A stretch of DNA of 62,433 bases from a virus (IMGVR_UViG_3300044513_004371:1-62433), one strand, 5' to 3'. Counted from the first letter of the stretch, positions 756 to 15,696 are shown. The notes: generated by a model not told the origin, from the sequence alone. Made by a program: numbers and translations.

Positions 756-825
756 ATTAATTTATTTTTATTGGTTACATAACAAATATACGAATAATTA
801 TTGGGAATAAAAAATTCCTGGTAAA

Positions 826-1266: not shown

Positions 1267-1453
1267 TGTCTATATTTTTAATTGGTTACATAGTAAATAT
1301 ACGAATAATGTTGGGAAAATAAAAATGTTGGGACACTTTTTTTCGACATTTGTTCGGAGCGAGTCGTACCACGAGGATCCACCTGCTTGCTCCGCTCCAG
1401 AGCGAGCCGGGTTTCGGGATCACCGTCAGCCGCTGGCTCCAGGCTCCGAGCAT

Positions 1454-1479
1454 AAAAAAACCCGGTAGCTAACCGGGTT
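1454..1479 (-). terminator. Rho-independent terminator
   Basis: AACCCGGT/ACCGGGTT stem followed by T-run on minus strand. Confidence 0.8.
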
Positions 1480-1539
1480 CTCTTAACATTCAGCCGTTAG
1501 GAGGAAGCATTACTACCGGCGTGATGTAAGACTCTATTA

Positions 1540-1917
1540 TTATTCTTCTACGGTCATTGCGTCGAGGAAAGTAATAGGAGTGCTGGGGAAGTTAAACGAG
1601 GATTTTACGAGCCACTGACCTTCTTGGGTATATAGGTATCTATACTCGATGAATACGTCGTCTTCATCAAAGAAATCCACCACAGATTCATTAAGATTAG
1701 GAGGACAGTCTTCATTTCTCCATGCTTTATAAGATAATTCGACCGTGCTTCGATCTCCTTCTTTAATATAGTCTAGTACTTCATCAGGATTGGTCCCATC
1801 AGGGAACATTTCTTGAAGAGCTTCTCCTACTCCTTCCAAGTATCCGTCATTGTGACAGTAAACTGAAAGTACTTTGTGTCCGTCGATTTCGACTCCAATT
1901 CTTGAACGTGTTGCCAT
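1540..1917 (-). CDS. Conserved phage hypothetical protein
   Basis: MATRSRIG...VYCHNDGY motif common in phage early proteins; own promoter. Confidence 0.75.
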   Translation of the reverse strand: MATRSRIGVEIDGHKVLSVYCHNDGYLEGVGEALQEMFPDGTNPDEVLDYIKEGDRSTVELSYKAWRNEDCPPNLNESVVDFFDEDDVFIEYRYLYTQEGQWLVKSSFNFPSTPITFLDAMTVEE

Positions 1918-1977
1918 ATTGTATAGATTTTTATTAGTTACAAAGTAAATATACGAAAAATTCTTGAAAAGAAAAAA

Positions 1978-2307
1978 TTAATTTTCAACTTTTTTCGCGA
2001 GCAATCTGGTATAGTACTCGACCATACCTTGCTCCTCCTTTAATTTACGCTGCATCCATTCAAGATGTTCCTTTGCCGCTTTACGTTTCTTTCGGGTCTC
2101 AGCTGCACTATTACCCTTTACTGAATGAATCATCGATCCTTGGACATTAATTGAAGAGGTAAGCTGACGCACGTTAGCACGACATTGAATAAGTTCTTCT
2201 TTCCATTCTTGCTTAAGGTATTCCTTACGCTCAAGCTCCATTTCTTGGCGAACTCTTTCTCTAGCTTCTTTTGCTCTATTCCAATTATGTACAAGTTGGT
2301 TTAACAT
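1978..2307 (-). CDS. Coiled-coil hypothetical protein (probably leaderless)
   Basis: ORF; ATG 3 nt after promoter box. Confidence 0.7.
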   Translation of the reverse strand: MLNQLVHNWNRAKEARERVRQEMELERKEYLKQEWKEELIQCRANVRQLTSSINVQGSMIHSVKGNSAAETRKKRKAAKEHLEWMQRKLKEEQGMVEYYTRLLAKKVEN

Positions 2308-2344
2308 ACGGTAAATATACGAATAATAGTTGGGAATAAAAAAT

Positions 2345-2521
2345 TTAGTTGAAACTTTTTATTTCATTCCACAGTTCCTCAAGCAGAACGATTTGAGCTC
2401 TAAGCTCCACAGCCTCGACGGAGTTCTCTGAATCAGGATCGCCAAGGCTAGTGTAGTCGTTAAGCTCAAATTCAAGTAGGTCTTTGCGCTCACGAATAAG
2501 GTTTAAGACCTGCTCGATCAT
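2345..2521 (-). CDS. Small acidic hypothetical protein (58 aa)
   Basis: Own translation MIEQVLNLIRERKDLLEF...; ATGA overlap with upstream gene stop. Confidence 0.6.
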   Translation of the reverse strand: MIEQVLNLIRERKDLLEFELNDYTSLGDPDSENSVEAVELRAQIVLLEELWNEIKSFN

Positions 2522-2805
2522 TTGAACTCGACTTGGGTTCCTTCACCCGGAGGAGTCCAGTCTCCAGTTACCTTTCTTGCTAGACCGATAAGGTCGCCCT
2601 CATCATCTAGAATAACTTGAACTTTACCGTCTTTGTAATAATCATTCCATTGACAGTCCCACTCTACAGGTTTACCGTTCTTAAAATTCTTAGGGATTTC
2701 AGCCGGGAGGTCACAGACATAATCGTATACCTCAGTTTCTCCTCGGTTATCACAGGAACTAAACGCTAGTACAAGTGATAATATTAAAATGTTAATTGCC
2801 TTCAT
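2518..2805 (-). CDS. Putative lipoprotein
   Basis: Signal peptide with lipobox-like LAFSSC. Confidence 0.65.
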   Translation of the reverse strand: MKAINILILSLVLAFSSCDNRGETEVYDYVCDLPAEIPKNFKNGKPVEWDCQWNDYYKDGKVQVILDDEGDLIGLARKVTGDWTPPGEGTQVEFK

Positions 2806-2855
2806 AAATCTAATATACTAATTATTTTTGACATCTGAAAATTTTTAGGGATAAA

Positions 2856-3128
2856 TTATACTCTTTTTACATGAGCAATTGTAATCGAGGCTTCCGGATC
2901 TAGATCGTCCTGGATTTGAACTGCGCCTGTCTGTCTGATTCTTTCGATCGCAGTTCTGTATTTCAGACTTGGATTCCTGATTCCAGCTACGCTTAATCCC
3001 CTCTCATAGGCTTTTTTAAAAGTATTGGAAGCTACTAAGGTAGAGCGAAGCTCCTCGCCTATGCTCGAAGGCAGGCTCGTTCGGTGAGCGTCCCTACTTG
3101 CGATCATTATGTAGATCCAATTATCCAA
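2856..3128 (-). CDS. Hypothetical protein
   Basis: ORF overlapping neighbour in operon. Confidence 0.6.
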   Translation of the reverse strand: MDNWIYIMIASRDAHRTSLPSSIGEELRSTLVASNTFKKAYERGLSVAGIRNPSLKYRTAIERIRQTGAVQIQDDLDPEASITIAHVKRV

Positions 3129-3363
3129 TTCGGTCTATGATGTCTTTAATGAAACTACATTTCTCGAACTCCTCCTTCTCTACAAAATGTTCAATCATAG
3201 AATCAAGAGCCTGAATCTTAGACTCTCTAGGAGAAGGGTCTTCAACTGCCTCGTCCGGATAAGAAGATAAACTATTAAATACTACATTATAAAATATATC
3301 TACATCTTCCCTCTTTAAGGCTTCTAACTGGTTAAGTAATTTATCTGAATTTAAATATGTCAT
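3121..3363 (-). CDS. UvrB/UvrC (UVR)-motif protein
   Basis: FVEKEEFEKCSFIKD. Confidence 0.65.
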   Translation of the reverse strand: MTYLNSDKLLNQLEALKREDVDIFYNVVFNSLSSYPDEAVEDPSPRESKIQALDSMIEHFVEKEEFEKCSFIKDIIDRIG

Positions 3364-3817
3364 AATTCTCTTTACAATGATTAAAATACTCGTTCTTCAT
3401 GCTTTCCCACCGGTCTTCATACTGCCAGTTTCGAAGAACTTCACTGTTCATAATACTAAAGTAACCCACGTGCTTTAAATCAAATACAAAATGTCCAAGC
3501 TCGTGGTATACTGCGGCTCTGACTACATACTCTCCTCGGTCGATTAGCTGGTCAGATAAGACGATTGTATTATCCTTCTTGTTCGATACTCCAACGAACC
3601 CTGAACCTACCTCTCCAAACTTGAGACTACGGAGTCTACCTATCGGGTACCTAACATCGATACCTTCTCGATCCATGTCAGCCTGCCATTCGTCTAGGAA
3701 GGGCTGTAAGCGAGGATCAACGACTGGGCCTGGGCCTGGAGGTCTAGTCCATAGGTATATACTAAAGGCCGCAATTGAAATAAAGAAGAAGAGTGTACTA
3801 CGGAGTGACTTGCTCAT
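3341..3817 (-). CDS. Membrane-anchored zinc metallopeptidase (metzincin-like)
   Basis: N-terminal TM; HELGHFVFDLKH plus Met-turn-like SIMNS. Confidence 0.75.
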   Translation of the reverse strand: MSKSLRSTLFFFISIAAFSIYLWTRPPGPGPVVDPRLQPFLDEWQADMDREGIDVRYPIGRLRSLKFGEVGSGFVGVSNKKDNTIVLSDQLIDRGEYVVRAAVYHELGHFVFDLKHVGYFSIMNSEVLRNWQYEDRWESMKNEYFNHCKENYDIFKFR

Positions 3818-4139
3818 TGATACTATTATTAGTTTGTTCGATAATTTGCTGGCCTGAGTCGTCTCCGAATAGATCCATCATCATTCCTTCTAGAATGTAT
3901 AGACCTCTCTTAGCGCTCTCCACGAATCTAGGATCCATGTATTCTTCGTTAATTGCCTTTACTGCTCCGCATTTAATGATCTCTTCCATATCGTCCAGCA
4001 GATTAGCAAACACTGCGGTTGATTGATACAGATCTACTGCCTGTCTTGGTTTTAGACTCTCGATTCTTGGGTCTTGGAAAAAGTAATCCAAGTCGATTTT
4101 CATAATGTTCTCTCCGTCAAATACTACTACGTTCTTCAT
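3798..4139 (-). CDS. Hypothetical protein
   Basis: ORF in operon. Confidence 0.65.
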   Translation of the reverse strand: MKNVVVFDGENIMKIDLDYFFQDPRIESLKPRQAVDLYQSTAVFANLLDDMEEIIKCGAVKAINEEYMDPRFVESAKRGLYILEGMMMDLFGDDSGQQIIEQTNNSINEQVTP

Positions 4140-4144
4140 TTCTT

Positions 4145-4849
4145 TTATTGATTATAGATTTTCTTCAGTTTATTTAGCGCTCTCTTTTTGATATTACCTA
4201 CAGTAACATTAGTAACTCCAAGAATCTTGCCGATCTCGATCTGAGTTACACGCTCTCCGGTTTCTAGTCCAAAGAACAAGGTTATAACTTCGCGTTCACG
4301 ATCAGTTAGCATTCCCAGAGCCGATCCAATCGAAGCTACAAAGTCGTTAGTTTCTTCAGCTGGCTCCTTGAATGGATATCTATCTGAGCGGCGCTCTTGA
4401 TTATCATCGGAGACCACCTGGTCCAGACGAACTGGCGTCAGGTTCTCGACTTCTTTACCTTCTTTCTTTGCCAAGTATCTTTCATACTCTTGATTAACCG
4501 GGATTCTTACAATCCTTCCACACTGATCAATCAGCTCGTTCATAAGCTTAATGACTCGAGTTCTAGCAAAGCTAGTGAATCTTACTCCAGCATTTGGATC
4601 GAATCTAAGAGCAGCTTCGTATAGGCCAATATTACCCTGTTGGATAAGGTCATCAACTAGGATACCTCTTCCAATATTACGATTAGCCATCGTAACTACA
4701 ATCTTAAGATTATGCTTAACCAGAGTGTTGATCGCATCTCTGTTACCTTCCTTGATTTTAAGCGCAAGGTCACGCTCTTCTTCCCTGCTTAAGGGATTTA
4801 AATTTCTGATAGATTCAAAGTATCTATCTAAGCTTTCTGATTTACTCAT
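4145..4849 (-). CDS. Sigma-70 family RNA polymerase sigma factor
   Basis: Region 2 LVKHNLKIVV...DLIQQGNIGLYEAALRFDP, RIVRIP, region 4 HTH. Confidence 0.9.
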   Translation of the reverse strand: MSKSESLDRYFESIRNLNPLSREEERDLALKIKEGNRDAINTLVKHNLKIVVTMANRNIGRGILVDDLIQQGNIGLYEAALRFDPNAGVRFTSFARTRVIKLMNELIDQCGRIVRIPVNQEYERYLAKKEGKEVENLTPVRLDQVVSDDNQERRSDRYPFKEPAEETNDFVASIGSALGMLTDREREVITLFFGLETGERVTQIEIGKILGVTNVTVGNIKKRALNKLKKIYNQ

Positions 4850-5012
4850 CTTCGTCTTCTTTAATGGTTCTTATTTCGTCGTCTGTTATAGTAACTCTAA
4901 GTGAAGCTGATACACATCTCCAACATGTTACAGCTGTCGCTTCTGAACCACAGTTATGTACTTCATCGTCGCATACTCTACAGTTCAATGTTTTACCTTC
5001 TTTTTTTCTCAT
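4842..5012 (-). CDS. Small zinc-ribbon protein (56 aa)
   Basis: Own translation MRKKEGKTLNCRVC...TCWRC...; stop overlaps the sigma start. Confidence 0.65.
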   Translation of the reverse strand: MRKKEGKTLNCRVCDDEVHNCGSEATAVTCWRCVSASLRVTITDDEIRTIKEDEDE

Positions 5013-5233
5013 TCTTTAGAGATTATTTTTATATACATTTACATATAACTAGATGTATACTGTAAATATAAGAGATTTTTTTGAAAAGTAAAAATTTTAT
5101 TGAAAAAATTTCAAACTTTTTATTGAGCGAGGTTAGTAATATATCATGCGTCACTGGACTCGCTCAAATGATATCACATAAAAAAAGGAGCCGGAGCTCC
5201 TATTATATTATACCGTTATTGGTAATAAGGTTT

Positions 5234-5428
5234 CTATCTTATAGTATCCTTACCGGCTTCTTGCCAGCCGGATGAAAAGTCTTGCAGGATACTTCGAGCA
5301 GTTTGACCTGCCGCCTTTGGAATGTTAGTAGATTCTCCACGCTGTTTGTTAACTGCCATCTGGTAGAGAACGCTGATTACTACAATGTTTAGGAAGATGG
5401 CGAGCAATGTTCTTAAAATCTTTTTCAT
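5234..5428 (-). CDS. Small membrane protein
   Basis: N-terminal hydrophobic helix. Confidence 0.6.
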   Translation of the reverse strand: MKKILRTLLAIFLNIVVISVLYQMAVNKQRGESTNIPKAAGQTARSILQDFSSGWQEAGKDTIR

Positions 5429-5733
5429 TGGTTAAATTTTAAAGTAGTTAGAAGAGAGCATGTTTCATAATCTTCTATTTCCTCATAGTAAGATACGCAC
5501 ATACCTAAATTTTCCTTAATTGATTCTGGTGTTAATTCAAATATCAATTCATCGATCGCAAAGCAAGGAACCCTGCTTAGATTATTCTCTGACATTCTGA
5601 CCAAAGATGTTTTAATCGCAGAGTAAACGTCGTCGCGGTGTAAGAATCTCAAGTCGTCCGGATGGTCCACTTCGAAGAGAGGAATCTCCCATGATTTACC
5701 GCTGTCCGGATCTTTATGAGTTATGATAAGCAT
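5425..5733 (-). CDS. UVR-motif protein
   Basis: YYEEIEDYETCSLL. Confidence 0.6.
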   Translation of the reverse strand: MLIITHKDPDSGKSWEIPLFEVDHPDDLRFLHRDDVYSAIKTSLVRMSENNLSRVPCFAIDELIFELTPESIKENLGMCVSYYEEIEDYETCSLLTTLKFNQ

Positions 5734-6191
5734 TATTCAAATATTACTTTGGTCTTCTTATTACTTAGTACTATTTCTAATCCTGATGGAGCAAAGCCTC
5801 CGATTGGTGAACCACTGATATCTGCTTCGACGTTATCCCAGAAGTCCTCGTCTTTTTCGTTCCAGCTGAATTCGTACTCGTGCTCGTACTCTTCCCACTT
5901 CTCGTCGTCAAGAGGATCGGGAACAATTACGTTGAATGTAATTATACCACTTACTTCCAATATATTTATATAAGTATCTTTTATTCCCCACGATCTTTCT
6001 TCAAATTCAGCGGACCACTTAACTTTAATATTAACCGAAGATACATCGATCTCCAGGTCAAGGGCTCCTACTTCCTGTAAGAAACTATCAGCAGTATCTG
6101 GTACAGAGAATCCAATGGTCTCAGGATTCTTGTATCCATCTACATCTACACTTATGTAGCTATCTATCGTTGTTTCATATGGTCCTAGCAT
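5733..6191 (-). CDS. Acidic hypothetical protein
   Basis: ORF, D/E rich. Confidence 0.65.
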   Translation of the reverse strand: MLGPYETTIDSYISVDVDGYKNPETIGFSVPDTADSFLQEVGALDLEIDVSSVNIKVKWSAEFEERSWGIKDTYINILEVSGIITFNVIVPDPLDDEKWEEYEHEYEFSWNEKDEDFWDNVEADISGSPIGGFAPSGLEIVLSNKKTKVIFE

Positions 6192-6207
6192 TTAAATATT
6201 CTTTTTA

Positions 6208-6459
6208 TTATTTAATCTTCTTGGCTGAATTATAAAGTTTTACAGCCTGGTCGAGGTCTCCTTCCGCCAGCATGATAGCACCTAGCTCGACTGAGAAGTT
6301 CTCTTTAAAGAATTTTAAATTAGCAGGACTTTGTTTAACGATAGGTATACAATCGTTTAACGAAACCATACGTTCAGGTATAGCTAATCTTTTAAGCTTC
6401 TTACGTACTCGGTCCTTTGCGCCGAATCTCAATAACTGATTTATCTCTTCCACTCTCAT
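6208..6459 (-). CDS. Hypothetical protein (probably leaderless)
   Basis: ATG 3 nt after promoter box at 6463. Confidence 0.65.
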   Translation of the reverse strand: MRVEEINQLLRFGAKDRVRKKLKRLAIPERMVSLNDCIPIVKQSPANLKFFKENFSVELGAIMLAEGDLDQAVKLYNSAKKIK

Positions 6460-6495
6460 ATAGTAAATATACGAAAAATAATTGGGATAAAAAAA

Positions 6496-6744
6496 TTATT
6501 GACCCAGTTTATTAATTAATTCTTTACGTTCTTCGTCTGTCATACGAATCACATCAAAGAATCTCTGCTGAAGTTCATTTTCAGCCTCTGTCGTACAGTA
6601 GTGTACGTAATCGTCAAAGTCTAACCAATCTTCTTTTTCGTCCAAAAACTCTGGGTCAGTATCAGATAACTCTACCTTTTCGACGGCTACTCCCATAATC
6701 GGATGAGTTCCAAGTAGCCAAAACTTTACTATTCTCTTTTTCAT
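6496..6744 (-). CDS. Acidic hypothetical protein
   Basis: Start moved to MKKRIVK, downstream of promoter at 6761. Confidence 0.65.
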   Translation of the reverse strand: MKKRIVKFWLLGTHPIMGVAVEKVELSDTDPEFLDEKEDWLDFDDYVHYCTTEAENELQQRFFDVIRMTDEERKELINKLGQ

Positions 6745-6878
6745 GTTTAATATCTTTACTATAAATATAGGCAATATTCTTGAAAAGTAAAATTATCTGT
6801 GATAATAATCTGCATTATTTCCAGAGCGAGCATAGCACGCCTATGCACGCCTTAGGCTTCGCTCCAGGCATGGGGCAT

Positions 6879-6902
6879 AAAAAAACCCTACCGAAGTAGG
6901 GT
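6879..6902 (-). terminator. Rho-independent terminator after tRNA
   Basis: ACCCTAC-TTCG-GTAGGGT plus T-run. Confidence 0.85.
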
Positions 6903-6906
6903 CTTG

Positions 6907-6980
6907 TGATCCGGACAGGATTCGAACCTGTGACCGTCTGCTTAGAAGGCAGATGCTCTATCCAGCTGAGCTACCGGACC
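6907..6980 (-). tRNA. tRNA-Arg(TCT)
   Basis: GGTCCGGTAGCTCAGCTGGATAGAGCATCTGCCTTCTAAGCAGACGGTCACAGGTTCGAATCCTGTCCGGATCA; cloverleaf, CCA not encoded. Confidence 0.95.
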
Positions 6981-6986
6981 GGGTTC

Positions 6987-7178
6987 TTAGTTAACCTCCA
7001 TTACTTGCTCGTATAAAGAGGCGTAGGACTTAACTATTTCTGGATGGTTACGTTGCATTCGCTTACACCAGTCTTCTGCCCATCGCATTGCATTCGATAA
7101 TTGGTCTTGGGTCTTACAGCTACGCACCACTCGGTTCACGTATTTAAACTGTTCTAAAAGGGTATCTAGATTATTCAT
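6987..7178 (-). CDS. Hypothetical protein
   Basis: ORF in operon with tRNA. Confidence 0.65.
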   Translation of the reverse strand: MNNLDTLLEQFKYVNRVVRSCKTQDQLSNAMRWAEDWCKRMQRNHPEIVKSYASLYEQVMEVN

Positions 7179-7180
7179 GA

Positions 7181-7381
7181 TTATGATTTAAGTTTCTTAG
7201 AGAGGCTGGCATAATAATAATCGCCAGTATCTTGGTACAACTTCCAAAATTTATCCGCAAGCCCAGTTGAGTCTTCGGTCATTTCTGCCAGGGCTTCAGC
7301 CGATCTGTGCTTAGCTACTGACCATACTCGATAATCGTTCGAGTTAATCAGCTTCCAATGTTCTCTTTCAGTCATGCTCAT
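7181..7381 (-). CDS. Hypothetical protein (probably leaderless)
   Basis: ATG 3 nt after promoter box at 7385. Confidence 0.6.
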   Translation of the reverse strand: MSMTEREHWKLINSNDYRVWSVAKHRSAEALAEMTEDSTGLADKFWKLYQDTGDYYYASLSKKLKS

Positions 7382-7508
7382 ATTGTAAATATACGAATAA
7401 TTATTGAAATAAAAAAATTAAAATATATGTTTTTTCCAGAGTGGCCCTGTTGCGAGAGTTCCCGAGAGGCGCTCGCTCCCGGTGGGCACGGTGACGACTA
7501 CGGAGTCA

Positions 7509-8183
7509 TTACCAATCTGCATTCTCATCTTTATATTGAATCATTAGTTCATCAAACATATCGTTATATTCTTTGTAGAGGCGGGAGTATATCTCCTTGT
7601 TCTTATTAACAATCCAATTGTTGATCCAAGGTTCTAGATACTCGCTGAACTCGGAGATCTCCTTATCGTCCTCTTCGGTAAATGTAGCGTCTTCTAAGTC
7701 TCGGTCCTTAGGGTCTAAACATACTGAGTACTCTTCCAATTCAAAGTCAAGTAGGGTGGAGCGCTCGTGTACATGTCGACTGTCTCTCCTAAATACGCTT
7801 GCACTAAATAGGTCTACATTCATTTCTAAAACCGAGTGTATAGCAGGTCTAATTGCTCCAGTATCTTCAGCTGAGAATCCAAGTCCAAGTAGAGTATCTC
7901 CAGCGAACTTCATCTCCTCTTCCCAGTTAGTCAACTGATCGCTTTGATAATTCATCTCATCCCAGTGTTTCTTTAAGAAGAGCGAAACGTCCAGATTCTT
8001 AGAGGTAAAGCTGGCTCCATCCCCTTGATTGTGCCAGCCGGAGAATTCAATATCCGTCTGGGAAAAGCCGCTTTGTTCCAGTTCTTCCTCCAGCTCTTCA
8101 ATAGTAAATTGGAACCAGTCGTCGGTTATACTGCTCTCTACTATTTCGATCTGACGATATTCGCTTAGCTCATTGAACTTCAT
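7509..8183 (-). CDS. Conserved acidic phage protein
   Basis: IEFSGWHNQGDGASF motif; start moved to MKFNEL just after upstream stop. Confidence 0.7.
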   Translation of the reverse strand: MKFNELSEYRQIEIVESSITDDWFQFTIEELEEELEQSGFSQTDIEFSGWHNQGDGASFTSKNLDVSLFLKKHWDEMNYQSDQLTNWEEEMKFAGDTLLGLGFSAEDTGAIRPAIHSVLEMNVDLFSASVFRRDSRHVHERSTLLDFELEEYSVCLDPKDRDLEDATFTEEDDKEISEFSEYLEPWINNWIVNKNKEIYSRLYKEYNDMFDELMIQYKDENADW

Positions 8184-8184
8184 A

Positions 8185-8568
8185 TTACCACCAGCTATCA
8201 TAATATACAGTGTACCCTTCTTTGATCGACTTGATAGCTTCCTTACAGAACTGAAGGTCATCGTTCTCCTCGTCCTTATCACCCATTGACTGACCGAAAA
8301 AGAATCCTTCAGTGTGAGGTAATTCATCATCAATAATAACAGAAGCGATATAATTAATATCTTCTTCAGTCAATTGAACAGGGTCTCCATTGAAATACTC
8401 TCCATTGCCTCCCTTCTCTCGATACAGACCTTCCATCAGGCCGTGTAGATTAGGGTGCTTACGCCAGTAGTGGAGTTCTTCAACTTCTACGTCTTGAATT
8501 TCATCTTGGAAGTCAACTGACTTCGTTAACTTTGTTTTGGTGCGGAACGCAAATTGGTCTAATCCCAT
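8185..8568 (-). CDS. Conserved phage hypothetical protein
   Basis: MGLDQFAF...YWRKHPNLHG...GFFFG...YYDSWW family pattern. Confidence 0.75.
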   Translation of the reverse strand: MGLDQFAFRTKTKLTKSVDFQDEIQDVEVEELHYWRKHPNLHGLMEGLYREKGGNGEYFNGDPVQLTEEDINYIASVIIDDELPHTEGFFFGQSMGDKDEENDDLQFCKEAIKSIKEGYTVYYDSWW

Positions 8569-8623
8569 AATGTTTTTGTTTTAAGTATAAGTAAATATAC
8601 GAATAATATGCGATATAAAAAAA

Positions 8624-8842
8624 TTATTCGTCATAAAATTCTTCAATAACATCAGCGCCATATATTTCTCCTCTTGCTCCAAAACCAAACTCCACACCTG
8701 GCTCTGCCTTGACTAAAAATACCGCATGATAATAGTCATTATCAATGGATTCATCGAACGACTTCTTAGCGTCTTCAATGTTCGGGAAAATCTGATAAGA
8801 GTCCCCGTCGTAATTTAAGTTTATTAGTACATACATAATCAT
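8624..8842 (-). CDS. Acidic hypothetical protein
   Basis: ORF, ATGA overlap. Confidence 0.6.
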   Translation of the reverse strand: MIMYVLINLNYDGDSYQIFPNIEDAKKSFDESIDNDYYHAVFLVKAEPGVEFGFGARGEIYGADVIEEFYDE

Positions 8843-9135
8843 ACAAATGCGCGTGGGATTCCTAATTCATCAATTAAGCAGGTCCAGTCGAATTCTTCTA
8901 ATACTTCATCTAGACTAAGGTCATTTTCCTCTCCCCAATCTTTAACGTATTCGAATAGGTCATCATCTTCAAGATACTCCTCGACTTCCTGGTTGAAGTC
9001 AATAAATTCGTCTCGGTACTTATTACCGTAACGCATTAAACGATCTAGTGATTCTTCTAAATCACTCCTAATTTCAGACTCGATACCATCGGTAAAGTCC
9101 CTCAATAATTCTAATTCTTTTTCCGTGTATTTCAT
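8839..9135 (-). CDS. Highly acidic small protein
   Basis: About one third D/E; own promoter. Confidence 0.7.
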   Translation of the reverse strand: MKYTEKELELLRDFTDGIESEIRSDLEESLDRLMRYGNKYRDEFIDFNQEVEEYLEDDDLFEYVKDWGEENDLSLDEVLEEFDWTCLIDELGIPRAFV

Positions 9136-9269
9136 GTGTTTTGTTTTAAGTGTAAGTAAATATACGAATAATTTTTGAAATAAAAAAATCTTATCACAAA
9201 ATTTTATTATTTGTTCGGAGCGAGTGCAGCTCGACTTATTTAATTGTTTCGCGGCTCAGGACTTGGAAC

Positions 9270-9298
9270 AAAGAAAAGCCCCGCCGAAGCAGGGCTTT
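9270..9298 (-). terminator. Rho-independent terminator
   Basis: AAAGCCCTGC-TTCG-GCGGGGCTTT plus T-run. Confidence 0.8.
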
Positions 9299-9323
9299 CC
9301 AAACCTAAAACAATCCACCTACA

Positions 9324-9566
9324 CTAACTACCGCTGATCTCTACAGCGGTGAGGAATCGATTATATTCCTCTTCTAGTATATCTTTTATTAACTCAATCG
9401 AATCTTCTTCTTCTGCCATCCACTTGTTGGTTACTCCGTTAAATATAGTATACCAACTGATAGGCTTATTTTCTCGGTCCAGTCTGATCCACACGCTACC
9501 TTGGGGTACTCGCCCTTCAACATGCCGATCTTGGATTGGATTCCAATTAATCATCGTCTTCGTCAA
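9324..9566 (-). CDS. Hypothetical protein
   Basis: ORF in operon. Confidence 0.55.
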   Translation of the reverse strand: MTKTMINWNPIQDRHVEGRVPQGSVWIRLDRENKPISWYTIFNGVTNKWMAEEEDSIELIKDILEEEYNRFLTAVEISGS

Positions 9567-9747
9567 GAACTAACTCAAGCGCTTCCAAGCGTTGGGCTTC
9601 TCGTTCGGCGAAGTATCCCAGCTTCGCCATCGAGTATCGAACCCCGTCCGCATTCTCGTCTTTACACGATTGAATCATTTGATTAAAATGATATTCCAAT
9701 TTTTCTTTGAATCCGTTCGGATATTTCTTTACTGTTCCTTTTTTCAT
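9547..9747 (-). CDS. Hypothetical protein
   Basis: ORF in operon. Confidence 0.6.
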   Translation of the reverse strand: MKKGTVKKYPNGFKEKLEYHFNQMIQSCKDENADGVRYSMAKLGYFAEREAQRLEALELVLDEDDD

Positions 9748-9920
9748 ATTACTCCAAAACTAATTAATACTGATGGGTTTCCATGTTCACACTCTCCGTC
9801 GGGCTCAACTTCACATCCTTCACTACAGCAAGCCGGTACTACGGAGTCATAGATTAAGTCTGCTAAGGAAACCCCGTGTATTTCCAGGGTTTCCTTCTCT
9901 GAGATTCTGGTGTTCGACAT
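9744..9920 (-). CDS. Small Cys/His metal-binding phage protein
   Basis: ACCSEGCEVEPDGECEHG; start moved to MSNTRI. Confidence 0.65.
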   Translation of the reverse strand: MSNTRISEKETLEIHGVSLADLIYDSVVPACCSEGCEVEPDGECEHGNPSVLISFGVI

Positions 9921-10168
9921 TATTCGGCGATAAAGATTTCTTGATTGACACTCACTGACCTCCACTCTTGTTTTTGCAAGTCAAAGTAGGTTACGACCTT
10001 CGGGCTTGAGCTGCCTCCCTTTGGATGATTTTCAAGCGGGACCTGTTCGAGTAGAGTGGTTCCCAACGCAGTGCGTAAGGTCCCGTCCAATTTCTTAAAT
10101 GCGAACTGTACCGTACCGACATTTAATCGGTTACGTAATTCTTGTGGATTGATTGGTTCTAATACCAT
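9920..10168 (-). CDS. WYL_2/SH3 beta-barrel family protein
   Basis: VQFAFKKLDGTLRTALGT...YFDLQKQEWRS. Confidence 0.75.
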   Translation of the reverse strand: MVLEPINPQELRNRLNVGTVQFAFKKLDGTLRTALGTTLLEQVPLENHPKGGSSSPKVVTYFDLQKQEWRSVSVNQEIFIAE

Positions 10169-10224
10169 GTTAATTGTTTTAAGTTATATAGTAAATATAC
10201 TAATTATTCCTGACAAATAAAAAT

Positions 10225-10626
10225 TTATTTACGATTTAGTAGAGTACCGTGCATAACCGGCTCGGCCGCCATGCGCTTGTCCAAGGCATCTGCGATACAC
10301 TCGTCCGTATGTGTGTCACCCATCCCGGCTCCCTTGGCCTCGGGACTCTTTGCCAACACCTTGAGTTTCTTAATCGCTCCGCTGATGAGTTCATCGATGC
10401 GCGAGTCCCCAGTCTTACGGTTCTCCCCAATCGATCCCCAGTGCAAATTGCCGTAAAAACAATATCCAATTTGGTCTGCATCGATATTAAAAGGTTGACT
10501 ATTAATTTCATTAGTCAATTCATCGAGTATGTTATCGATTGACTGGGTTACTTTCTCGAACTCGGGTGTGGATTTCATATTATCCATGTCGTAGTTCAGT
10601 AGGGCATAAGGATTTTTAAAAGACAT
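10225..10626 (-). CDS. Hypothetical protein
   Basis: ORF with own promoter. Confidence 0.7.
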   Translation of the reverse strand: MSFKNPYALLNYDMDNMKSTPEFEKVTQSIDNILDELTNEINSQPFNIDADQIGYCFYGNLHWGSIGENRKTGDSRIDELISGAIKKLKVLAKSPEAKGAGMGDTHTDECIADALDKRMAAEPVMHGTLLNRK

Positions 10627-10807
10627 AATGTAATTGTTTTAAGTTATAAGTAAATATACGAATAATCCTTGAAATAAAAAAATAAATTCTAAAAAAGGTT
10701 GAAAGTTTTTCAGAGCGAAATTTGCAACGGATAGTACCATGCAGAACCCGCTCCTGGGCGAGCATAAAAAGGTGCATAGCGATGCTCACTTGCTCCTGGC
10801 TTTGAGC

Positions 10808-10840
10808 AAAAGAAAAAGGTCTTCTAGTTGAAGACCTTTT
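10808..10840 (-). terminator. Rho-independent terminator
   Basis: AAAAGGTCTTC/GAAGACCTTTT stem plus T-run. Confidence 0.8.
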
Positions 10841-10884
10841 CCCGACATAATAACCAAAATGATAAACAATAAGATGAATATCCT

Positions 10885-11211
10885 TTAATCTATAGTACTA
10901 AATTCTTTTATTTTTTTAAAGAATTGTTCTTTTAAATTTTTTAATCTAGCACATTTCTCGTACTCTTCTTTTTCCACAAAGTATTCTAACATACTTTCCA
11001 ATTCCCACATTACCTTCTCATTCGATAGGTGAAGCATCTCAGGCCTTTGCATAAAATACTCTTGGTTCTGGTTAAAGACCTCGTCGAAATGATCTTCGAC
11101 TACCCATTCAAATAGGTTCAAGCTGTCCTCATCCCGGCCCAGTTCTCCGTCTACAGAGTTGATAAAGTTAATCAACCCCTGATTCTGTTTTACTTCGTTT
11201 ACTTCCATCAT
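10885..11211 (-). CDS. UVR-motif protein
   Basis: YFVEKEEYEKCARLKNL. Confidence 0.7.
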   Translation of the reverse strand: MMEVNEVKQNQGLINFINSVDGELGRDEDSLNLFEWVVEDHFDEVFNQNQEYFMQRPEMLHLSNEKVMWELESMLEYFVEKEEYEKCARLKNLKEQFFKKIKEFSTID

Positions 11212-11411
11212 TTTAACTCGATTAATTTTATACGGTCATTGTGTTTAAATGCTTTAAGCATTACTTTACCGCATGGAGCTACAAAGCTAAAGGTGTGGAA
11301 TTCTATATCTGGATCACTATACCTAACCTTGATTGACTTGATATCCGATTCAGCATAGCCTTTAGATTGGCTCCATAGTTTGATTGCTTCTTGTATTAAC
11401 GGTGTAGTCAT
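11208..11411 (-). CDS. Hypothetical protein
   Basis: ORF, ATGA overlap. Confidence 0.6.
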   Translation of the reverse strand: MTTPLIQEAIKLWSQSKGYAESDIKSIKVRYSDPDIEFHTFSFVAPCGKVMLKAFKHNDRIKLIELK

Positions 11412-11591
11412 AGGAGTATATTATTATTTATTTGTACAGTGGTTATAACTCTCAGGTTTTATAGACTAATTTATTGTTGTTACTGTAAATATAGTAAAAA
11501 ATTTTTAAACTAAAAAATTAAATCTAAAAAATCTATAAAAACAAGAAAGGCCGACTACGGAGTCGACCCTTCTCTAACTTAAAACAAGGAA

Positions 11592-12053
11592 TCAGAAATT
11601 ACCGGGCGCTACCTGAAAACAGGCGATTCCGTTGCGCCTCCACATATCAACAACCTTATCACGGTCATCAAATACACAGAGCAGTTTAGACCTATCCGGA
11701 AATAGACTATCCAACCAGTGTTGCTTTAACTTATCGTCCGGCATAAAGTGCCAGTCCTCCCCAGTCGGTCTCATCTTTAAGACATCATAAGGTACCTCCC
11801 ACTTGGACAACCAATCCAGCGTAGCCGACTTGGTAGCCTTGCTCCGACCAGACAGAATAGCGATCTTATAACCTCGAACCTTCATAGCTTTACAAGCCTC
11901 GATTACTGGATGGTTCGGTTCGTCCAACTCCACGTTCTTCGGATCAAAGAACTGGTCCCAATCGATCTTACCGTCAGGGAGACTTGCCAACTCTCGTCTT
12001 TTTCGAATGTCGGCAAGCGTCCCGTCCAAATCAAAGATTACCCACTTACTCAT
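11592..12053 (-). CDS. HAD phosphatase, T4 PseT (PNKP) 3'-phosphatase-like, stand-alone
   Basis: DLDGTL, SGR, FDDRDKVVDMWR...CFQVAPGNF. Confidence 0.85.
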   Translation of the reverse strand: MSKWVIFDLDGTLADIRKRRELASLPDGKIDWDQFFDPKNVELDEPNHPVIEACKAMKVRGYKIAILSGRSKATKSATLDWLSKWEVPYDVLKMRPTGEDWHFMPDDKLKQHWLDSLFPDRSKLLCVFDDRDKVVDMWRRNGIACFQVAPGNF

Positions 12054-12054
12054 T

Positions 12055-12210
12055 TTAAAACTGAATTAAATCGATTGCCATTTCCCCGGTCGGTTCCCCG
12101 TTCCTCAGGATCTCGTAGTTTGGGTCCATCCCGCTCTGTATCACGTCTGCGATGAGCTCGTCGATGGTTGAAAATAATTTCTCGTAATAATTACAATCTA
12201 GTCCGTACAT
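12055..12210 (-). CDS. Small hypothetical protein
   Basis: Start moved to MYGLDC downstream of promoter at 12231. Confidence 0.6.
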   Translation of the reverse strand: MYGLDCNYYEKLFSTIDELIADVIQSGMDPNYEILRNGEPTGEMAIDLIQF

Positions 12211-12358
12211 GTGTTTTGTTTTAAGTATAAGTAAATATACAAATAATAATTGGGAAATAAAAATCAGGTGTAAAGTTTTTAGGATATAACCTAGAGCGAG
12301 GGCGCACCTCCGGATGTCTAGCACGCCTCATGCTCTCTTCGCTCCTGGCTTTGAGCAT

Positions 12359-12384
12359 AAAAAAAGGAGTCCAATAGACTCCTT
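12359..12384 (-). terminator. Rho-independent terminator
   Basis: AAGGAGTC/GACTCCTT stem plus T-run. Confidence 0.8.
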
Positions 12385-12415
12385 CTTCCTAAATCATACG
12401 GGTCCCGCTGAGGGA

Positions 12416-12661
12416 TTACTTCGGCTGGCGATATAGAATATTCATCAGGATTCTTTTGTCTCCTGGATTCCACAAGGATTCACCGAGCTCCTGCTCCATT
12501 TGTTCCTCCTCCATCATGGCCTCCTTCATGCGCGATTGCCATTGTGCTACGCTCATTTGACTTGGCACGAACTGGTCGCAGTAAGCATAGTCTGCCAAGG
12601 TATTAAACTCTTTCTCAGTCAAGCTCAGGGCTTGAGTTAAGATTTCTTTTACACTACTCAT
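12416..12661 (-). CDS. Hypothetical protein
   Basis: Start moved to MSSVKE downstream of promoter. Confidence 0.6.
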   Translation of the reverse strand: MSSVKEILTQALSLTEKEFNTLADYAYCDQFVPSQMSVAQWQSRMKEAMMEEEQMEQELGESLWNPGDKRILMNILYRQPK

Positions 12662-12791
12662 AGGTATGGGGTTTAAGGATTTAGTTAAATATAAGAATCT
12701 TTTATGGATTAAAAAAATCAAGGGTGAAAAGATTTAGAAACCAAATGGGGGCGAGCAAAGGAGAAGAGGGCTCGCCCCTTGCTAGAGTGCT

Positions 12792-12819
12792 AAAAAAGCC
12801 GGTAACTAACGCTACCGGC
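12792..12819 (-). terminator. Rho-independent terminator
   Basis: GCCGGTA/TACCGGC stem plus T-run. Confidence 0.7.
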
Positions 12820-12841
12820 CTACTACGGAGTTAATCTTTTC

Positions 12842-13117
12842 TTATCTATAGAGAATTACATACTCTCCAAAATAACGATCGAATACTTGAATTGCATTTT
12901 CATAATCTCCTGATTTCATCTGATCCACAATCCAATCTCCTGCGCTCTGGCTTTCAGAAAAGCCTAGCCCTTCTAAGACGTCCTGACCTTCGATCTCCAG
13001 ATTTAATTGCTTTGCAAATCTCTTCGCCATACCCATGAGTACGAATACATTTCCGTCTGGTCCGCTAAGATCGATTTCAATCGGTCCACGAGGAATTTCA
13101 TTTCTGGACTTTATCAT
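12842..13117 (-). CDS. Conserved phage hypothetical protein
   Basis: IEIDLSGPDGNVFVLMG...MKSGDYE family pattern. Confidence 0.75.
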   Translation of the reverse strand: MIKSRNEIPRGPIEIDLSGPDGNVFVLMGMAKRFAKQLNLEIEGQDVLEGLGFSESQSAGDWIVDQMKSGDYENAIQVFDRYFGEYVILYR

Positions 13118-13326
13118 AGGTCATGGGGTTTACCGATTCCTCGGAAGTTAAGATTTCCTAATTGAACTGCGAGACTCTCTGCCAACTTTGCCTCCTCGAA
13201 TCGTGGGTGTGCCCTCTCCTTCTGATCACAATCGCGACAAATCATTTCCTGATTAAACCACGATCCTGTGGTGATGTTGGTGTGGCACTGACACCGATCA
13301 CACTTTTTAAATTCTAATCCGTACAT
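13114..13326 (-). CDS. Small zinc-finger protein
   Basis: CDRC...SWFNQEMICRDC. Confidence 0.7.
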   Translation of the reverse strand: MYGLEFKKCDRCQCHTNITTGSWFNQEMICRDCDQKERAHPRFEEAKLAESLAVQLGNLNFRGIGKPHDL

Positions 13327-13663
13327 GATGTATGTGTTTTAAGTTAATACTAATATAAGAAAAATCCTTTAAATAAAAAAATCCTGCGAAAAAATAAATG
13401 AGAGCGAACTCTGCCCTCCTCAGGTACGCGTGGTTTCCGGAGAGATTCGTCCAGACCTGAGCGAATCCCAAAATTTAACCCTCCGATGTAAATCAGGTTA
13501 CTGTCGCTCCGGATGCCGGGCGAAGTCTGCAAGGTATCCTAACTGGGTAGAGTCGCCCGAAGTCTGGAGCGAAACCGCAGGCGCGCAGGAGTCAGGTAGG
13601 CTGGGCCAGCTTAGGTTGTTTAACCTTTTTCCCAAAAGATTAAACACACTGATTTTGGGGCAT

Positions 13664-13692
13664 AAAAAAACCTGGCCGTAAAGACCAGGTTT
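13664..13692 (-). terminator. Rho-independent terminator
   Basis: AAACCTGG/CCAGGTTT stem plus T-run. Confidence 0.75.
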
Positions 13693-13713
13693 CTCACACA
13701 ACAATTAGGGATT

Positions 13714-13851
13714 TTAAAATTCGAAACTCATACCTGTAGAATAGTTGCCAGTTACTAGATTAAAGATTGCGAATCCAATTCCCCAAACTGATAAGCAGAT
13801 TAGGCCACTAGCCCAAACTGTAAATACTCCGTTAATTACTTTTGTTTTCAT
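13714..13851 (-). CDS. Small membrane peptide (45 aa)
   Basis: Own translation MKTKVINGVFTVWASGLICLSVWGIGFAIFNL..., between promoter at 13877 and terminator. Confidence 0.65.
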   Translation of the reverse strand: MKTKVINGVFTVWASGLICLSVWGIGFAIFNLVTGNYSTGMSFEF

Positions 13852-13958
13852 CTGATTTTTATTAATTGGTTATAGAGTAAATATAGGCATAATTCCGGAA
13901 TTAAAAAAATAATCAAACACTTTATTCGAAATCTTTTAAGGGCGAGGTCTGCTAGGCG

Positions 13959-14123
13959 CTAGTACTCGTCGCTATCGTCCGGGAGCCAGTTCTTCGGGCG
14001 TCTGCCTTTGCGAGTGTAGCGCTTTCGGTTTCTTTGAACAGAACCCCGCTGCGCATCCCACCATTCCTGCTGAGAGAGCTCAACCTCCTTTAGCCGGACA
14101 TTGGTCTTGTTCTTCTTGTTCAT
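13959..14123 (-). CDS. Small basic protein (54 aa), ArfA-like motif
   Basis: Own translation ...VQRNRKRYTRKGRRPK... Confidence 0.5.
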   Translation of the reverse strand: MNKKNKTNVRLKEVELSQQEWWDAQRGSVQRNRKRYTRKGRRPKNWLPDDSDEY

Positions 14124-15513: not shown

Positions 15514-15661
15514 TTACTTCTATTTTTATTTCTTCTTTCAGGCTGTCCTGTGTCCTGGTCTTGGTATCCTTAGATTGGTTTTCAATTGAAAGGATTAGGA
15601 TCCCGATTAGGGTTCCCCAAAAGATACAGGAAAAACACTTTCTTTGCCAAAAGTCATACAT
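15497..15661 (-). CDS. Small membrane protein (54 aa)
   Basis: Own translation MYDFWQRKCFSCIFWGTLIGILIL...; follows AAACC-type promoter. Confidence 0.45.
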   Translation of the reverse strand: MYDFWQRKCFSCIFWGTLIGILILSIENQSKDTKTRTQDSLKEEIKIEVNEIHR

Positions 15662-15668
15662 ATAATAA

Positions 15669-15696
15669 GTTATACTGCCCGCGCGACTCGAGGTTT
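15669..15696 (-). promoter_or_regulatory. Class-2 promoter AAACC-N16-GTATAAC
   Basis: Same spacing as the other copies in the window. Confidence 0.55.

Follow-up and report, generated by a model that had tools for sequence, protein, structure and literature searches.

Inverted sequence pairs in one-turn steps upstream of early promoters of an uncultured phage and four of its relatives

Promoter modules of the early region

The window, a stretch of 62,433 bases analysed at its full length, derives from an uncultured phage with a Bacteroidetes-type host. A T4-type large terminase and a baseplate wedge protein are encoded by this phage. Bacteroidetes hosts are characterized by unusual promoters and by translation that is not led by Shine-Dalgarno sequences, and to our knowledge very little is known about how the first genes of their phages are controlled. 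Inverted pairs of short G+C-rich half-sites were found upstream of many early promoter boxes in the window. The pairs were located by a relaxed scan (near half G[AG][AG][CT]G[AG], far half [CT][CG]G[CT][CT]C), by a strict scan (G[AG][AG]CGA-N5..60-TCG[CT][CT]C) of the entire 62,433 bases, or by reading. The features are given below; offsets are counted from the start of the box to the near half, and lengths between two hexamers are those of the spacer.

1293–1301, minus strand: -7 box, early promoter of gene 826–1266, GTAAATATA on the plus strand and TATATTTAC on the sense strand; repeat families D1–D3
1357–1397: inverted pair GAGCGA, 29 bp, CCGCTC; offset 64; relaxed scan
1400–1439: second, tandem pair GAGCGA, 28 bp, TGGCTC; relaxed scan
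1447–1480, minus strand: intrinsic terminator of the upstream unit, hairpin and T-run on the sense strand; read from the sequence
5062–5070, minus strand: -7 box, promoter of the Zn-ribbon/sigma-factor operon
5125–5165: inverted pair GAGCGAG/CTCGCTC, perfect 9-bp arms, 29 bp between hexamers; offset 63; strict and relaxed scans
6761–6769, minus strand: -7 box
6824–6864: inverted pair GAGCGA, 29 bp, TCGCTC; offset 63; strict and relaxed scans
7385–7393, minus strand: -7 box
7439–7478: inverted pair GAGTGG (degenerate near half), 28 bp, TCGCTC; offset 54, nearer by one turn; relaxed scan
9156–9164, minus strand: -7 box
9218–9257: inverted pair GAGCGA, 28 bp, CGGCTC; offset 62; relaxed scan
10650–10658, minus strand: -7 box
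10713–10753: inverted pair GAGCGA, 29 bp, CCGCTC; offset 63; relaxed scan
10756–10795: second, tandem pair GGGCGA, 28 bp, TTGCTC (far arm at 10790); read from the sequence
12231–12239, minus strand: -7 box
12294–12344: inverted pair GAGCGA, 39 bp, TCGCTC; offset 63; strict and relaxed scans
12685–12693, minus strand: -7 box variant, TTAAATATA on the plus strand
12749–12777: inverted pair GGGCGA, 17 bp, TCGCCC; offset 64; strict and relaxed scans
13349–13357, minus strand: -7 box variant, CTAATATAA on the plus strand
13402–13558: three tandem pairs, 13402–13452 (39 bp), 13459–13509 (39 bp) and 13518–13558 (29 bp); nearest half at offset 53
13877–13885, minus strand: -7 box
13940–13980: inverted pair GGGCGA, 29 bp, TCGTCC; offset 63; strict and relaxed scans

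The triple array is followed by a lone GAGCGAA at 13567, and the far half of the last pair (at 13975) lies inside the ORF 13959–14123. Degenerate arms occur mostly in the far half (CCGCTC, TGGCTC, CGGCTC, TTGCTC) and once in the near half (GAGTGG). No pair was found at boxes 1945, 2311, 6463, 8591, 10191 and 11485, the last of which had already been listed as lacking one, and box 782 has a lone GTTGCTC within coding sequence.

The earlier note had given ten promoter distances and fourteen spacer lengths. All ten distances (64, 63, 63, 54, 62, 63, 63, 64, 53, 63) were reproduced by the relaxed scan, which also returned thirteen of the spacers (29, 28, 29, 29, 28, 28, 29, 39, 17, 39, 39, 29, 29), the fourteenth being that of GGGCGA at 10756 (28 bp), recovered by reading. 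The pairs stand well above shuffled sequence, as the strict scan yielded 11 against 0.98 ± 1.10 (500 block shuffles, maximum 6). Terminator-promoter gaps hold eight of these 11, and one lies within gene 2856–3107 (3043, spacer 28); two in late genes, at 32154 (spacer 26) and 46719 (spacer 27), look like chance. A half-site is present at offset 53, 54 or 62–64 in 10 of the 18 window boxes (binomial P 1.4e-14 at a per-position frequency of 0.0029). The element is thus sequence-specific and tied to promoters, as had been claimed, and not a product of chance.

Spacing and helical register in five phages

The observation is real and extends beyond the window. The same promoter layout was found in four diverged uncultured relatives from IMG/VR, whose sigma factors are ~53% identical, in the order terminator, GC-rich inverted pair, A/T-rich stretch and TATATTTAC -7 box. 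At the sigma-operon promoters of the window phage and of two relatives, G002 and G003, the arms and the register are kept and the spacers are unrelated. Whole-contig scans for the near half plus box matched the forward strand 14 times in G002 and 13 times in G003, and the reverse strand in neither. Every match fell within one early block of 18–24 kb, and controls gave 0–1. The inverted pair is conserved across the five phages and is restricted to the early region. An unbiased count of 6-mers in the zone from -125 to -50 led to the same element, the 11 most enriched words (7.5–14 fold) all being sub-words of CGGAGCGAG / CTCGCTCYG.

The distance between the end of the GCTC core and the box was determined for 90 boxes. 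A gap of 54 was observed in 17, of 55 in 16, of 53 in 2, of 45 in 7 and of 64 in 2, so that the promoter distance also moves in 10-bp steps (45, 54–55, 64). With a background of 0.36 per position, the Poisson P is 2e-42 for gaps 54 and 55 together and 1e-7 for gap 45, values which are too optimistic, as are the binomial value above and those given below, because the modules of a phage are in part paralogs of each other and their counts are not independent. The far GAGC cores end at gaps of ~79, 91, 101 and 110 from the -7 box.

The spans of the pairs fall into three classes in 37 modules, with 28–29 bp in 9, 40–41 bp in 12 and 50–51 bp in 9, and the other 7 lie elsewhere. The Rayleigh R is 0.68–0.69 at periods of 10.5–11 bp (P 2–4e-8, with the same optimism), and when every GAGC is counted (42) it is 0.61 (P 2e-7). 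Spacer steps of about one turn recur in the four other phages. The earlier note had also placed the two half-sites on the same face of the DNA; of this, the one-turn steps stand, and the distances between hexamer centres are 23, 34.5 and 44.5 bp, so that same-face placement holds only under a helical repeat of ~11.2 bp or with a half-site centre ~3.75 nt inward from the outer edge of GAGC.

In Flavobacterium psychrophilum, the sigma-A TAnnTTTG box is placed at -12 to -5 in the cited account (PMC9723704). With the start site carried over from this organism, the near hexamer occupies about -72 to -67 and its centre lies at ~-70, with a minority at -60 or -80. The near half stands directly upstream of an A/T-rich, UP-like stretch.

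Nature of the paired element and its putative binder

Both arms independently match one consensus, R-GAGC-S-R-R, and combinations of unlike arms, for instance GAGCCAA with TTCGCTC, occur frequently. No covariation was seen between the arms: in 32 pairs, the counts of complementary flanking positions against the expectation of independence were 15/15.7, 21/19.6, 15/12.9 and 9/8.7 (inner side). Of 25 modules, 6 reached a folding z-score of -2 or lower on the sense strand and 8 did so on the antisense strand, without strand bias. Since covariation is lacking and the folding z-scores of both strands are ordinary, a protein site on double-stranded DNA is favoured and, as judged from sequence, appears to fit better than a hairpin.

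That the pair is a hairpin in single-stranded nucleic acid, either in read-through RNA as a processing or stability signal or in extruded DNA resembling an N4-type hairpin promoter, is highly improbable. Its arms are complementary by definition, some perfectly over 9–10 bp (5125/5160, 12747/12770), and small internal hairpins occur in a few spacers (6769 module). Against this stand the same absence of covariation and the same few low z-scores, C-C and G-G clashes at the fifth position of many pairs, a location after the terminator and before the promoter, and loops that would measure 17–39 nt, whose quantised length would be meaningless for a hairpin. For these loops, the missing covariation and the unremarkable folds, both the N4-type hairpin promoter and the RNA stem-loop were rejected as classes, and a search of Rfam returned tRNA and no other RNA family. 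Intrinsic terminators were also rejected, as the sense strand is A-rich after the near arm and the spacers are 17–39 nt, compared with a 3–8 nt loop and a T-run; the true terminators are located upstream of the pair. An integron attC site was dismissed on the basis of its R''/L''-L'/R' arms with a GTTRRRY core, as against R-GAGC-S-R-R here, and no integrase family was found among 73 proteins of the incomplete contig.

The pairs are probably double-stranded sites of a two-headed, sequence-specific protein which acts upstream of early promoters used by the host RNA polymerase. The predicted binder would either form a dimer or carry two DNA-binding units itself. One head would sit on the near half-site, R-GAGC-S-R-R, centred at ~-70 (-60 or -80 in a minority), and the other on the far half-site, which is inverted and lies a further two, three or four helical turns out, at ~-93, -104 or -115. 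The intervening GC-rich DNA would not be read base by base; the spacers have 54% G+C within regions of 33–43%, which a purely unread linker does not predict. With both halves in helical register with the -7 box, the protein would most likely touch RNA polymerase or a promoter-bound protein on one helix face, and binding at the far half would raise the affinity cooperatively. We infer that such a protein binds and contacts the transcription machinery.

The putative binding factor is, in our view, more likely phage-encoded than host-encoded. Among 31 early proteins, no DNA-binding Pfam match was obtained at E up to 1, and PHROGs did not reveal a binder among phage proteins either. Three small basic proteins occur in all five pair-bearing phages and are absent from L009, the locus of a pair-less relative; a DNA-binding fold was not found in any of the three, and the predicted folds of two conserved basic early proteins (pLDDT 76 and 74) had no convincing structural neighbour. 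A conserved cis-element of such precise geometry, repeated at dozens of promoters of five phages that are known solely through metagenomes, offers a concrete bait for a candidate regulator.

The missing phage protein in Pfam and PHROGs is also what would be expected if no separate factor existed and the host RNA polymerase directly contacted the cores, the upstream DNA being wound around the enzyme or around its pair of alpha C-terminal domains. This would require both cores to be in helical register with the promoter, and both indeed lie at quantised distances from the box (GCTC at 45, 54.5 and 64; GAGC at ~79, 91, 101 and 110). Known alpha-CTD sites are A/T-rich. The cores here are, on the contrary, G+C-rich and strictly inverted, and half of the strong early boxes have no pair, which makes direct contact by the polymerase very unlikely. 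An exact-pattern scan of one genome per species in 185,579 species gave 8 matches, about the number due to chance and none in this context; the pair is thus not visibly in use at promoters of the host itself, which is possibly outside this set.

As to the effect of the proposed two-headed protein, activation or recruitment is our tentative preference over shut-off or insulation, which we consider unlikely. In the latter case, the pair would be the site of an early or middle phage protein that switches the early promoters off, or a roadblock against read-through polymerase; the chance of such a site is likewise low. It would explain why pairs are found almost only behind terminators (17/33 against 1/36 with a strict terminator detector; Fisher 3e-6), why up to three of them are arrayed before the outermost promoter, 13349, and why the three small basic proteins track the pair-bearing phages and are missing at L009. 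Nevertheless, a site from -70 to -115 is clear of the DNA that the polymerase binds, its helical phasing with the box suggests contact more than simple blockage, and the three proteins are without a DNA-binding fold. Should the element prove to act as an insulator or as an activator, it could provide a compact module for expression engineering in Flavobacteriia and Bacteroides.

Comparison with known systems and mobile promoter cassettes

Class I CRP sites are centred at -61.5, -71.5 and -82.5, and the Fis sites that precede the rrnB P1 UP element at -71, -102 and -143; the function of both depends on the helix face. The near half at ~-70, with the start site borrowed from Flavobacterium, resembles these sites in lying upstream of an A/T-rich, UP-like stretch, in having variants one turn closer or further and in being accompanied by further elements whole turns upstream. 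The class I-like geometry put forward in the earlier note would hold to this extent. It does not extend to the compact CRP-type dyad, which for CRP and Fis measures 15–22 bp, as the halves here are 23–45 bp apart with a gap varying by whole turns; a CRP/FNR-dimer dyad was rejected for this distance and because a Pfam scan of 73 + 31 proteins returned no CRP-family match.

Cooperative binding or looping on separated operators, as by AraC at I1–O2 and by lambda CI, accepts altered spacings only in steps of ~10.5–11 bp, and the span classes of 29, 40.5 and 50.5 bp show the same whole-turn steps. Phasing in AraC and lambda CI was demonstrated by engineered insertions at one locus, whereas the classes here are natural and are found next to one another at dozens of promoters. 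As three spacer classes coexist with three promoter distances, they form a natural series for testing helical phase.

The phage-encoded regulator p4 of phi29 binds the target 5'-AACTTTTT-15 bp-AAAATGTT-3' (PMC1904284, in the part cited), and serves as activator as well as repressor, moulding the upstream DNA jointly with p6 (PMC3100819, likewise). Its target, as given there, resembles the pairs in that two inverted arms flank a spacer of non-conserved sequence, ahead of a promoter used by host polymerase. It differs in its fixed 15-bp spacer, its A/T-rich 8-bp arms and the small number of sites in the genome; the pairs have G+C-rich arms and spacers of 17–19, 28–29 or 39 bp, and number at least 10 per genome. 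A p4-type operator was rejected because of the G+C-rich arms and the three spacer classes. It is possible, and we put it tentatively, that a clade of large uncultured Bacteroidetes phages encodes or injects an undescribed two-headed protein which recognizes GAGCGA-like half-sites two, three or four turns apart and co-ordinates, from a constant place at ~-70, at least 10 host-polymerase early promoters per genome. The pairs would then amount to a viral "enhancer code" for immediate-early expression, with face-of-helix dependence displayed by the natural spacer classes.

The modules also resemble PeSLs (promoter-early stem-loops), composite terminator/promoter sequences which are linked in the cited account to indels in hyperplastic regions (PMC4122927). 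T4-type PeSLs, as described in the cited portions, likewise combine a terminator hairpin with a strong early promoter, are repeated between small genes of unknown function and bound gene insertions and deletions between close strains (PMC4122927; PMC2839356). In the window, the terminator-plus-box layout is repeated and the repeat families D1–D4 have 8–14 copies. The promoter here is of the Bacteroidetes TAnnTTTG type, unlike the TTGACA/TATAAT of PeSLs. PeSLs consist of terminator stem-loop and promoter only, as far as their description in these accounts goes, and a cassette of promoter and stem-loop alone was rejected, since here a third element, the conserved and phased inverted pair, lies between the two. 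The idea of mobile promoter-terminator cassettes is thereby extended to a distant phage lineage, with one element more.

The analogy to PeSLs drawn in the earlier note agrees with what is seen in L012 and L014, two strains of a single relative, which are 95.6% identical over 5,088 aligned bases. Several whole-gene insertions and deletions between them begin and end in repeated promoter modules, so that indels bounded by cassettes are seen in this relative and not in the window's own strain. Such indel ends, and the PeSL precedent for indel-linked terminator/promoter units in the cited account (PMC4122927), agree with arms that serve as recombination homology for cassette shuffling, as proposed for T4-type PeSLs, without a regulatory protein of their own. 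Recombination, however, needs no inversion, no fixed box distance of 54–55 nt and no spacer steps of 10–11 bp, and the longer repeat, in which the indels end, is the promoter itself. This role by itself is quite unlikely, but it can operate alongside the protein site. It further agrees with one module of L012 and L014 in which the spacer between the arms is swapped (27 against 23 nt, with about half of the bases different) between identical flanks of ~110 and ~70 nt.

Geometry of the inverted pair

Upstream of most early promoters in the window, the earlier note had described two inverted GAGCGA-like half-sites at a fixed distance from the -7 box, and this observation was confirmed and strengthened. 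All ten promoter distances were reproduced exactly; a single relaxed scan recovered 13 of the 14 spacers, and the remaining one was read from the sequence. In the scan of the whole contig that had been proposed as a check, 11 strict pairs were found compared with 0.98 ± 1.10 in block shuffles, eight of the 11 lying between a terminator and a promoter. A half-site was present at offsets of 53, 54 or 62-64 in 10 of 18 boxes (per-box chance 0.014, P = 1.4e-14). The promoters placed directly after a coding region, and likewise that at 11485, are without the pair, as had been said.

Relatives were found via the early sigma factor (4145-4849): proteins ~53% identical to it are encoded on three IMG/VR contigs of 118-137 kb. 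With a profile search a fourth lineage (the L006 group) was also recovered, as was a more remote locus, L009, at 38% identity; adjacent stretches of two contigs were added to the comparison. By CheckV, the contigs of the relatives are 45-54% complete. Conservation in related phages, another check proposed in the note, was observed in that all four closer phages share the same layout. The order on the sense strand is a terminator hairpin with T-run, 10-20 nt, a GGAGC-type arm, an unrelated G+C-rich spacer, a GCTC-type arm, an A-rich stretch, a T-rich -33 zone and TATATTTAC. At the orthologous promoters ahead of the sigma operon the arms and the register are kept and the spacers share nothing; the spacers have 54% G+C within regions of 33-43% G+C. 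Whole-contig scans of the related contigs G002 and G003 gave 14 and 13 sites, on one strand and in one block of 18-24 kb each, against 0-1 for the reversed control pattern. No excess over control was obtained in Tenacibaculum phage PTm1, Flavobacterium phage MaF61 or the distant contig G004. The absence of excess in G004, which is the L009 genome, and in these two cultured Flavobacteriia phages makes the element a trait of one clade.

Among 90 boxes from five phages, 33 are preceded by a GCTC core whose end is 54 or 55 nt away and 7 by one whose end is 45 nt away; distances of 53 and 64 nt account for 2 boxes each, and elsewhere there are 0.36 per position. The promoter distance is stepped at 45, 54-55 and 64. 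The modules form span classes of 28-29 bp (n = 9), 40-41 bp (n = 12) and 50-51 bp (n = 9), counted from the first base of the far GAGC to the last of the near GCTC, with 7 modules elsewhere, and each phage alone contains at least two span classes (mostly 41 in the window, mostly 29 in G002, 40-41 and 50-51 in G003). The Rayleigh maximum was found at periods of 10.5-11 bp (R 0.68-0.69, P 2-4e-8), the P value being optimistic because eight periods were tested and the modules within a phage are partly copies of one another. Spacer steps of about one helical turn, proposed for the window, are thereby recovered in the span classes of five phages. The hexamer centres are separated by 23, 34.5 and 44.5 bp, which is 2, 3 and 4 turns of ~11.2-11.5 bp or, alternatively, whole turns of 10.75 bp, the latter requiring that the true half-site centre is the C-G step of GAGCGA. 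The accessible text of PMC9723704 places the TAnnTTTG box of Flavobacterium psychrophilum at -12 to -5. With the start site taken from that species, the near hexamer would lie at about -72 to -67 and the far hexamers would be centred near -93, -104 and -115.

A terminator lies ahead of 17 of 33 pair-bearing promoters vs 1 of 36 others (Fisher 3e-6), as counted by a strict detector by which imperfect stems are missed. Since the distance from pair to box is tight and that from pair to terminator loose (~10-20 nt), the element is anchored to the promoter. A second promoter subclass in G002 (AAAAAAGTAT-TATATTTAT, lacking the T-rich -33 zone) likewise bears the pair, mostly at 45 nt:

L004 9179, second-subclass promoter, G002
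L004 11374, second-subclass promoter, G002
L004 12556, second-subclass promoter, G002
L004 12949, second-subclass promoter, G002

Within the conserved gene 2856-3107 there is one strict pair (3043-3082: GAGCGA, 28 bp, TCGTTC) that has no promoter box where one would be expected; it is a chance match or else a relic. Past the last early gene, a 900-bp non-coding stretch (14124-15044) contains at least 8 more GAGCGA-like half-sites that do not follow the geometry of the pairs, GGGGCC-rich repeats and, at 14158-14174, a perfect inverted copy of the promoter segment 13350-13366 pointing rightwards. This stretch could be a control region or an origin.

Pairing of the arms and exchange of modules

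The arms occur in variants such as GAGCGA/TCGCTC, GAGCCAA/TTGGCTC and GAGCGGG/CCCGCTC. Covariation of the arms was a first-sight impression, which was overturned by a count over 32 pairs. In these pairs the arms agree at flanking positions as often as two independent consensus draws; the variable G/C position gave 15 agreements where 15.7 were expected, other positions were similar, and mixed pairs that give C-C or G-G clashes if paired are common. A folding z of -2 or lower was obtained in 6 of 25 modules for the sense and 8 of 25 for the antisense strand, neither strand being preferred, and Rfam returned only tRNA in the window. In an unbiased word count of the -125 to -50 zone, the 11 most enriched hexamers were all parts of CGGAGCGAG / CTCGCTCYG. 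Taken together, the results indicate selection on the arms and on their placement but not on pairing, a pattern characteristic of double-stranded DNA recognised by a protein. The best explanation is a predicted protein site in helical register with the promoter, and we hold it to be rather probable. The interpretation in the earlier note is partly supported; activation, injection from the virion and the term "first-expressed" genes are guesses. The possibility that the arms are a tandem promoter used by a phage sigma factor was rejected, as an arm spacing of 28-39 bp with inverted symmetry is unlike a -35/-10 pair. A small ORF running across the pair from the ATG after the T-run was also rejected because other modules reach stops within 9 codons.

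A conserved ATGCTC comes after the T-run of the terminator (sense TTTTTTTATGCTC; repeat family D6), and this tail is also present in the related contigs G001, G002 and G003. The tail holds a further GCTC core 6-9 nt before the far arm, which may be a third half-site. In the window it is seen at:

1432-1460, T-run with ATGCTC tail
6857-6885, T-run with ATGCTC tail
10788-10816, T-run with ATGCTC tail
12337-12365, T-run with ATGCTC tail

Two strains of the L006-type phage, 95.6% identical across 5,088 aligned bases, are distinguished by gains and losses of whole genes, the end points of which are in repeated promoter modules, and in one module the spacer was replaced with arms intact and both flanks identical. 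Such differences match what the accessible text of PMC4122927 describes for the PeSL (promoter-early stem-loop) cassettes of T4-type phages. The suggestion that PeSL is the nearest analogue stands for the terminator-promoter cassette and the indels, which are shared, but not for the pair, a third element added in these phages. As shuffling leaves the helical register unexplained, we regard it as a further property of the modules and not as an explanation of the pair.

Candidate binding factors and known systems

No DNA-binding family was found among 31 early proteins (Pfam, E up to 1) or 65 proteins (PHROGs), and the three sigma factors alone are evident. Three small basic proteins (2856-3107, 6208-6459 and 1978-2307; alignments A2-A4) are common to the five phages with pairs, and none of them was seen at the L009 locus. 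Their profiles gave nothing below E 0.1 against PDB sequences. Foldseek, taken to E 0.001, matched neither of the AlphaFold models (A3 and A2, pLDDT 76 and 74), and the best VIA-align Z values of 5.4 and 4.5 are inside the stated noise range of the tool. A MarR-family likeness of A2 was discounted (TM 0.19-0.28, rmsd 11-14), and the best ESM Atlas scores for the basic early proteins, 0.81 and 0.79, are at chance level. For host-side use, an exact-pattern scan (41-bp class with box) of one genome per prokaryotic species returned 8 matches in unrelated taxa, without terminator or promoter context, which were taken as chance. This outcome is weak evidence for a putative factor encoded by the phage, as opposed to one from the host that would serve a regulon there.

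The phage is present in estuarine samples, and 14 DNA runs cover half or more of this region. Metatranscriptome contigs place the early genes in RNA libraries as well. Four such runs were mapped to 1-16000, the assembled contigs of 150-670 nt being blind to absence, starts, ends and timing; the 32 of 164 pieces listed are all confined to gene bodies, without any that spans a pair.

The class I positions of CRP and the Fis sites of rrnB P1 are upstream activator sites beside an UP element. The pair would be like them in being an upstream site next to an UP element. In the accessible text of PMC1904284, the p4 operator of phi29 is an inverted repeat with free spacer upstream of a host-polymerase promoter, features which the pair resembles. 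The pair differs from the CRP, Fis and p4 systems in halves that are far apart, spacing in three natural classes and G+C-rich arms; no homologue of their regulators was detected, and it is a member of none of these families. The note had known no described system with such a motif, and no account of one was found in the openly available article texts.

Phage type and accompanying motifs

The contig was taken entire (62,433 bp) and is open at both ends. A T4-type large terminase, a baseplate wedge protein, sigma-70 proteins, a CHU_C domain, start codons read without Shine-Dalgarno sequences ahead and a -7 element, TATATTTAC, that matches the Bacteroidetes TAnnTTTG consensus mark the phage as large and tailed with a Bacteroidetes-type host.

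4145-4849, sigma-70-family protein
16709-17623, sigma-70-family protein
53068-53700, sigma-70-family protein
20979-22865, 628-aa protein with C-terminal CHU_C type IX secretion sorting domain

A word-based protein search found no relative of the CHU_C protein in representative genomes. Among 50,697 phage records, cultured phages gave no near DNA match except to tRNA-Arg, and identity of the terminase to any record does not exceed 35%. The genes from 1 to ~14,100 lie on the minus strand as short units, all of which have their own promoter and many of which end in an intrinsic terminator. The tRNA-Arg gene (6907-6980, sense strand) is located in this early region directly upstream of a terminator and pair, and a conserved 56-aa Zn-ribbon protein (4842-5012) precedes the early sigma factor in the same operon in four phages.

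TGCC stands directly before the -7 box in 8 of 33 listed pair-bearing promoters, and at 13885 of the window, and in 0 of 35 others (by eye), for boxes in the window, G002, G003 and L006; this restriction may reflect copied modules. Examples are:

Window 6770-6773, TGCC before the box
L006:274-277, TGCC before the box

The pair was not significantly related to absence of a CCAA element near -25 (10/33 vs 16/36, P 0.32).

The 10-mer ACTCCGTAGT occurs 6 times in the window, always on the sense strand (0.01 expected), usually at or just past a stop codon and at times as the apex of a terminator hairpin. All relatives have this 10-mer too, in G003 (L003/L005) as the reverse complement.

3626-3635, minus strand, ACTCCGTAGT
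3797-3806, minus strand, ACTCCGTAGT
7497-7506, minus strand, ACTCCGTAGT
9838-9847, minus strand, ACTCCGTAGT
11554-11563, minus strand, ACTCCGTAGT
12822-12831, minus strand, ACTCCGTAGT

A second repeated intergenic motif, CTTTTTATTATTTATCTA (families D8, D14 and D19), stands before late-region genes and is likely a promoter class for one phage sigma factor.

24067-24094, plus strand, CTTTTTATTATTTATCTA motif
30014-30035, plus strand, CTTTTTATTATTTATCTA motif
30425-30460, plus strand, CTTTTTATTATTTATCTA motif
40225-40260, plus strand, CTTTTTATTATTTATCTA motif
52583-52615, plus strand, CTTTTTATTATTTATCTA motif

The gene at 40311-41336 has a weak Pfam match to T4 beta-glucosyltransferase, above threshold at 31.8 bits (cut-off 27). 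The DNA of this phage may be hypermodified, which, if true, would affect any protein reading the G+C-rich element.
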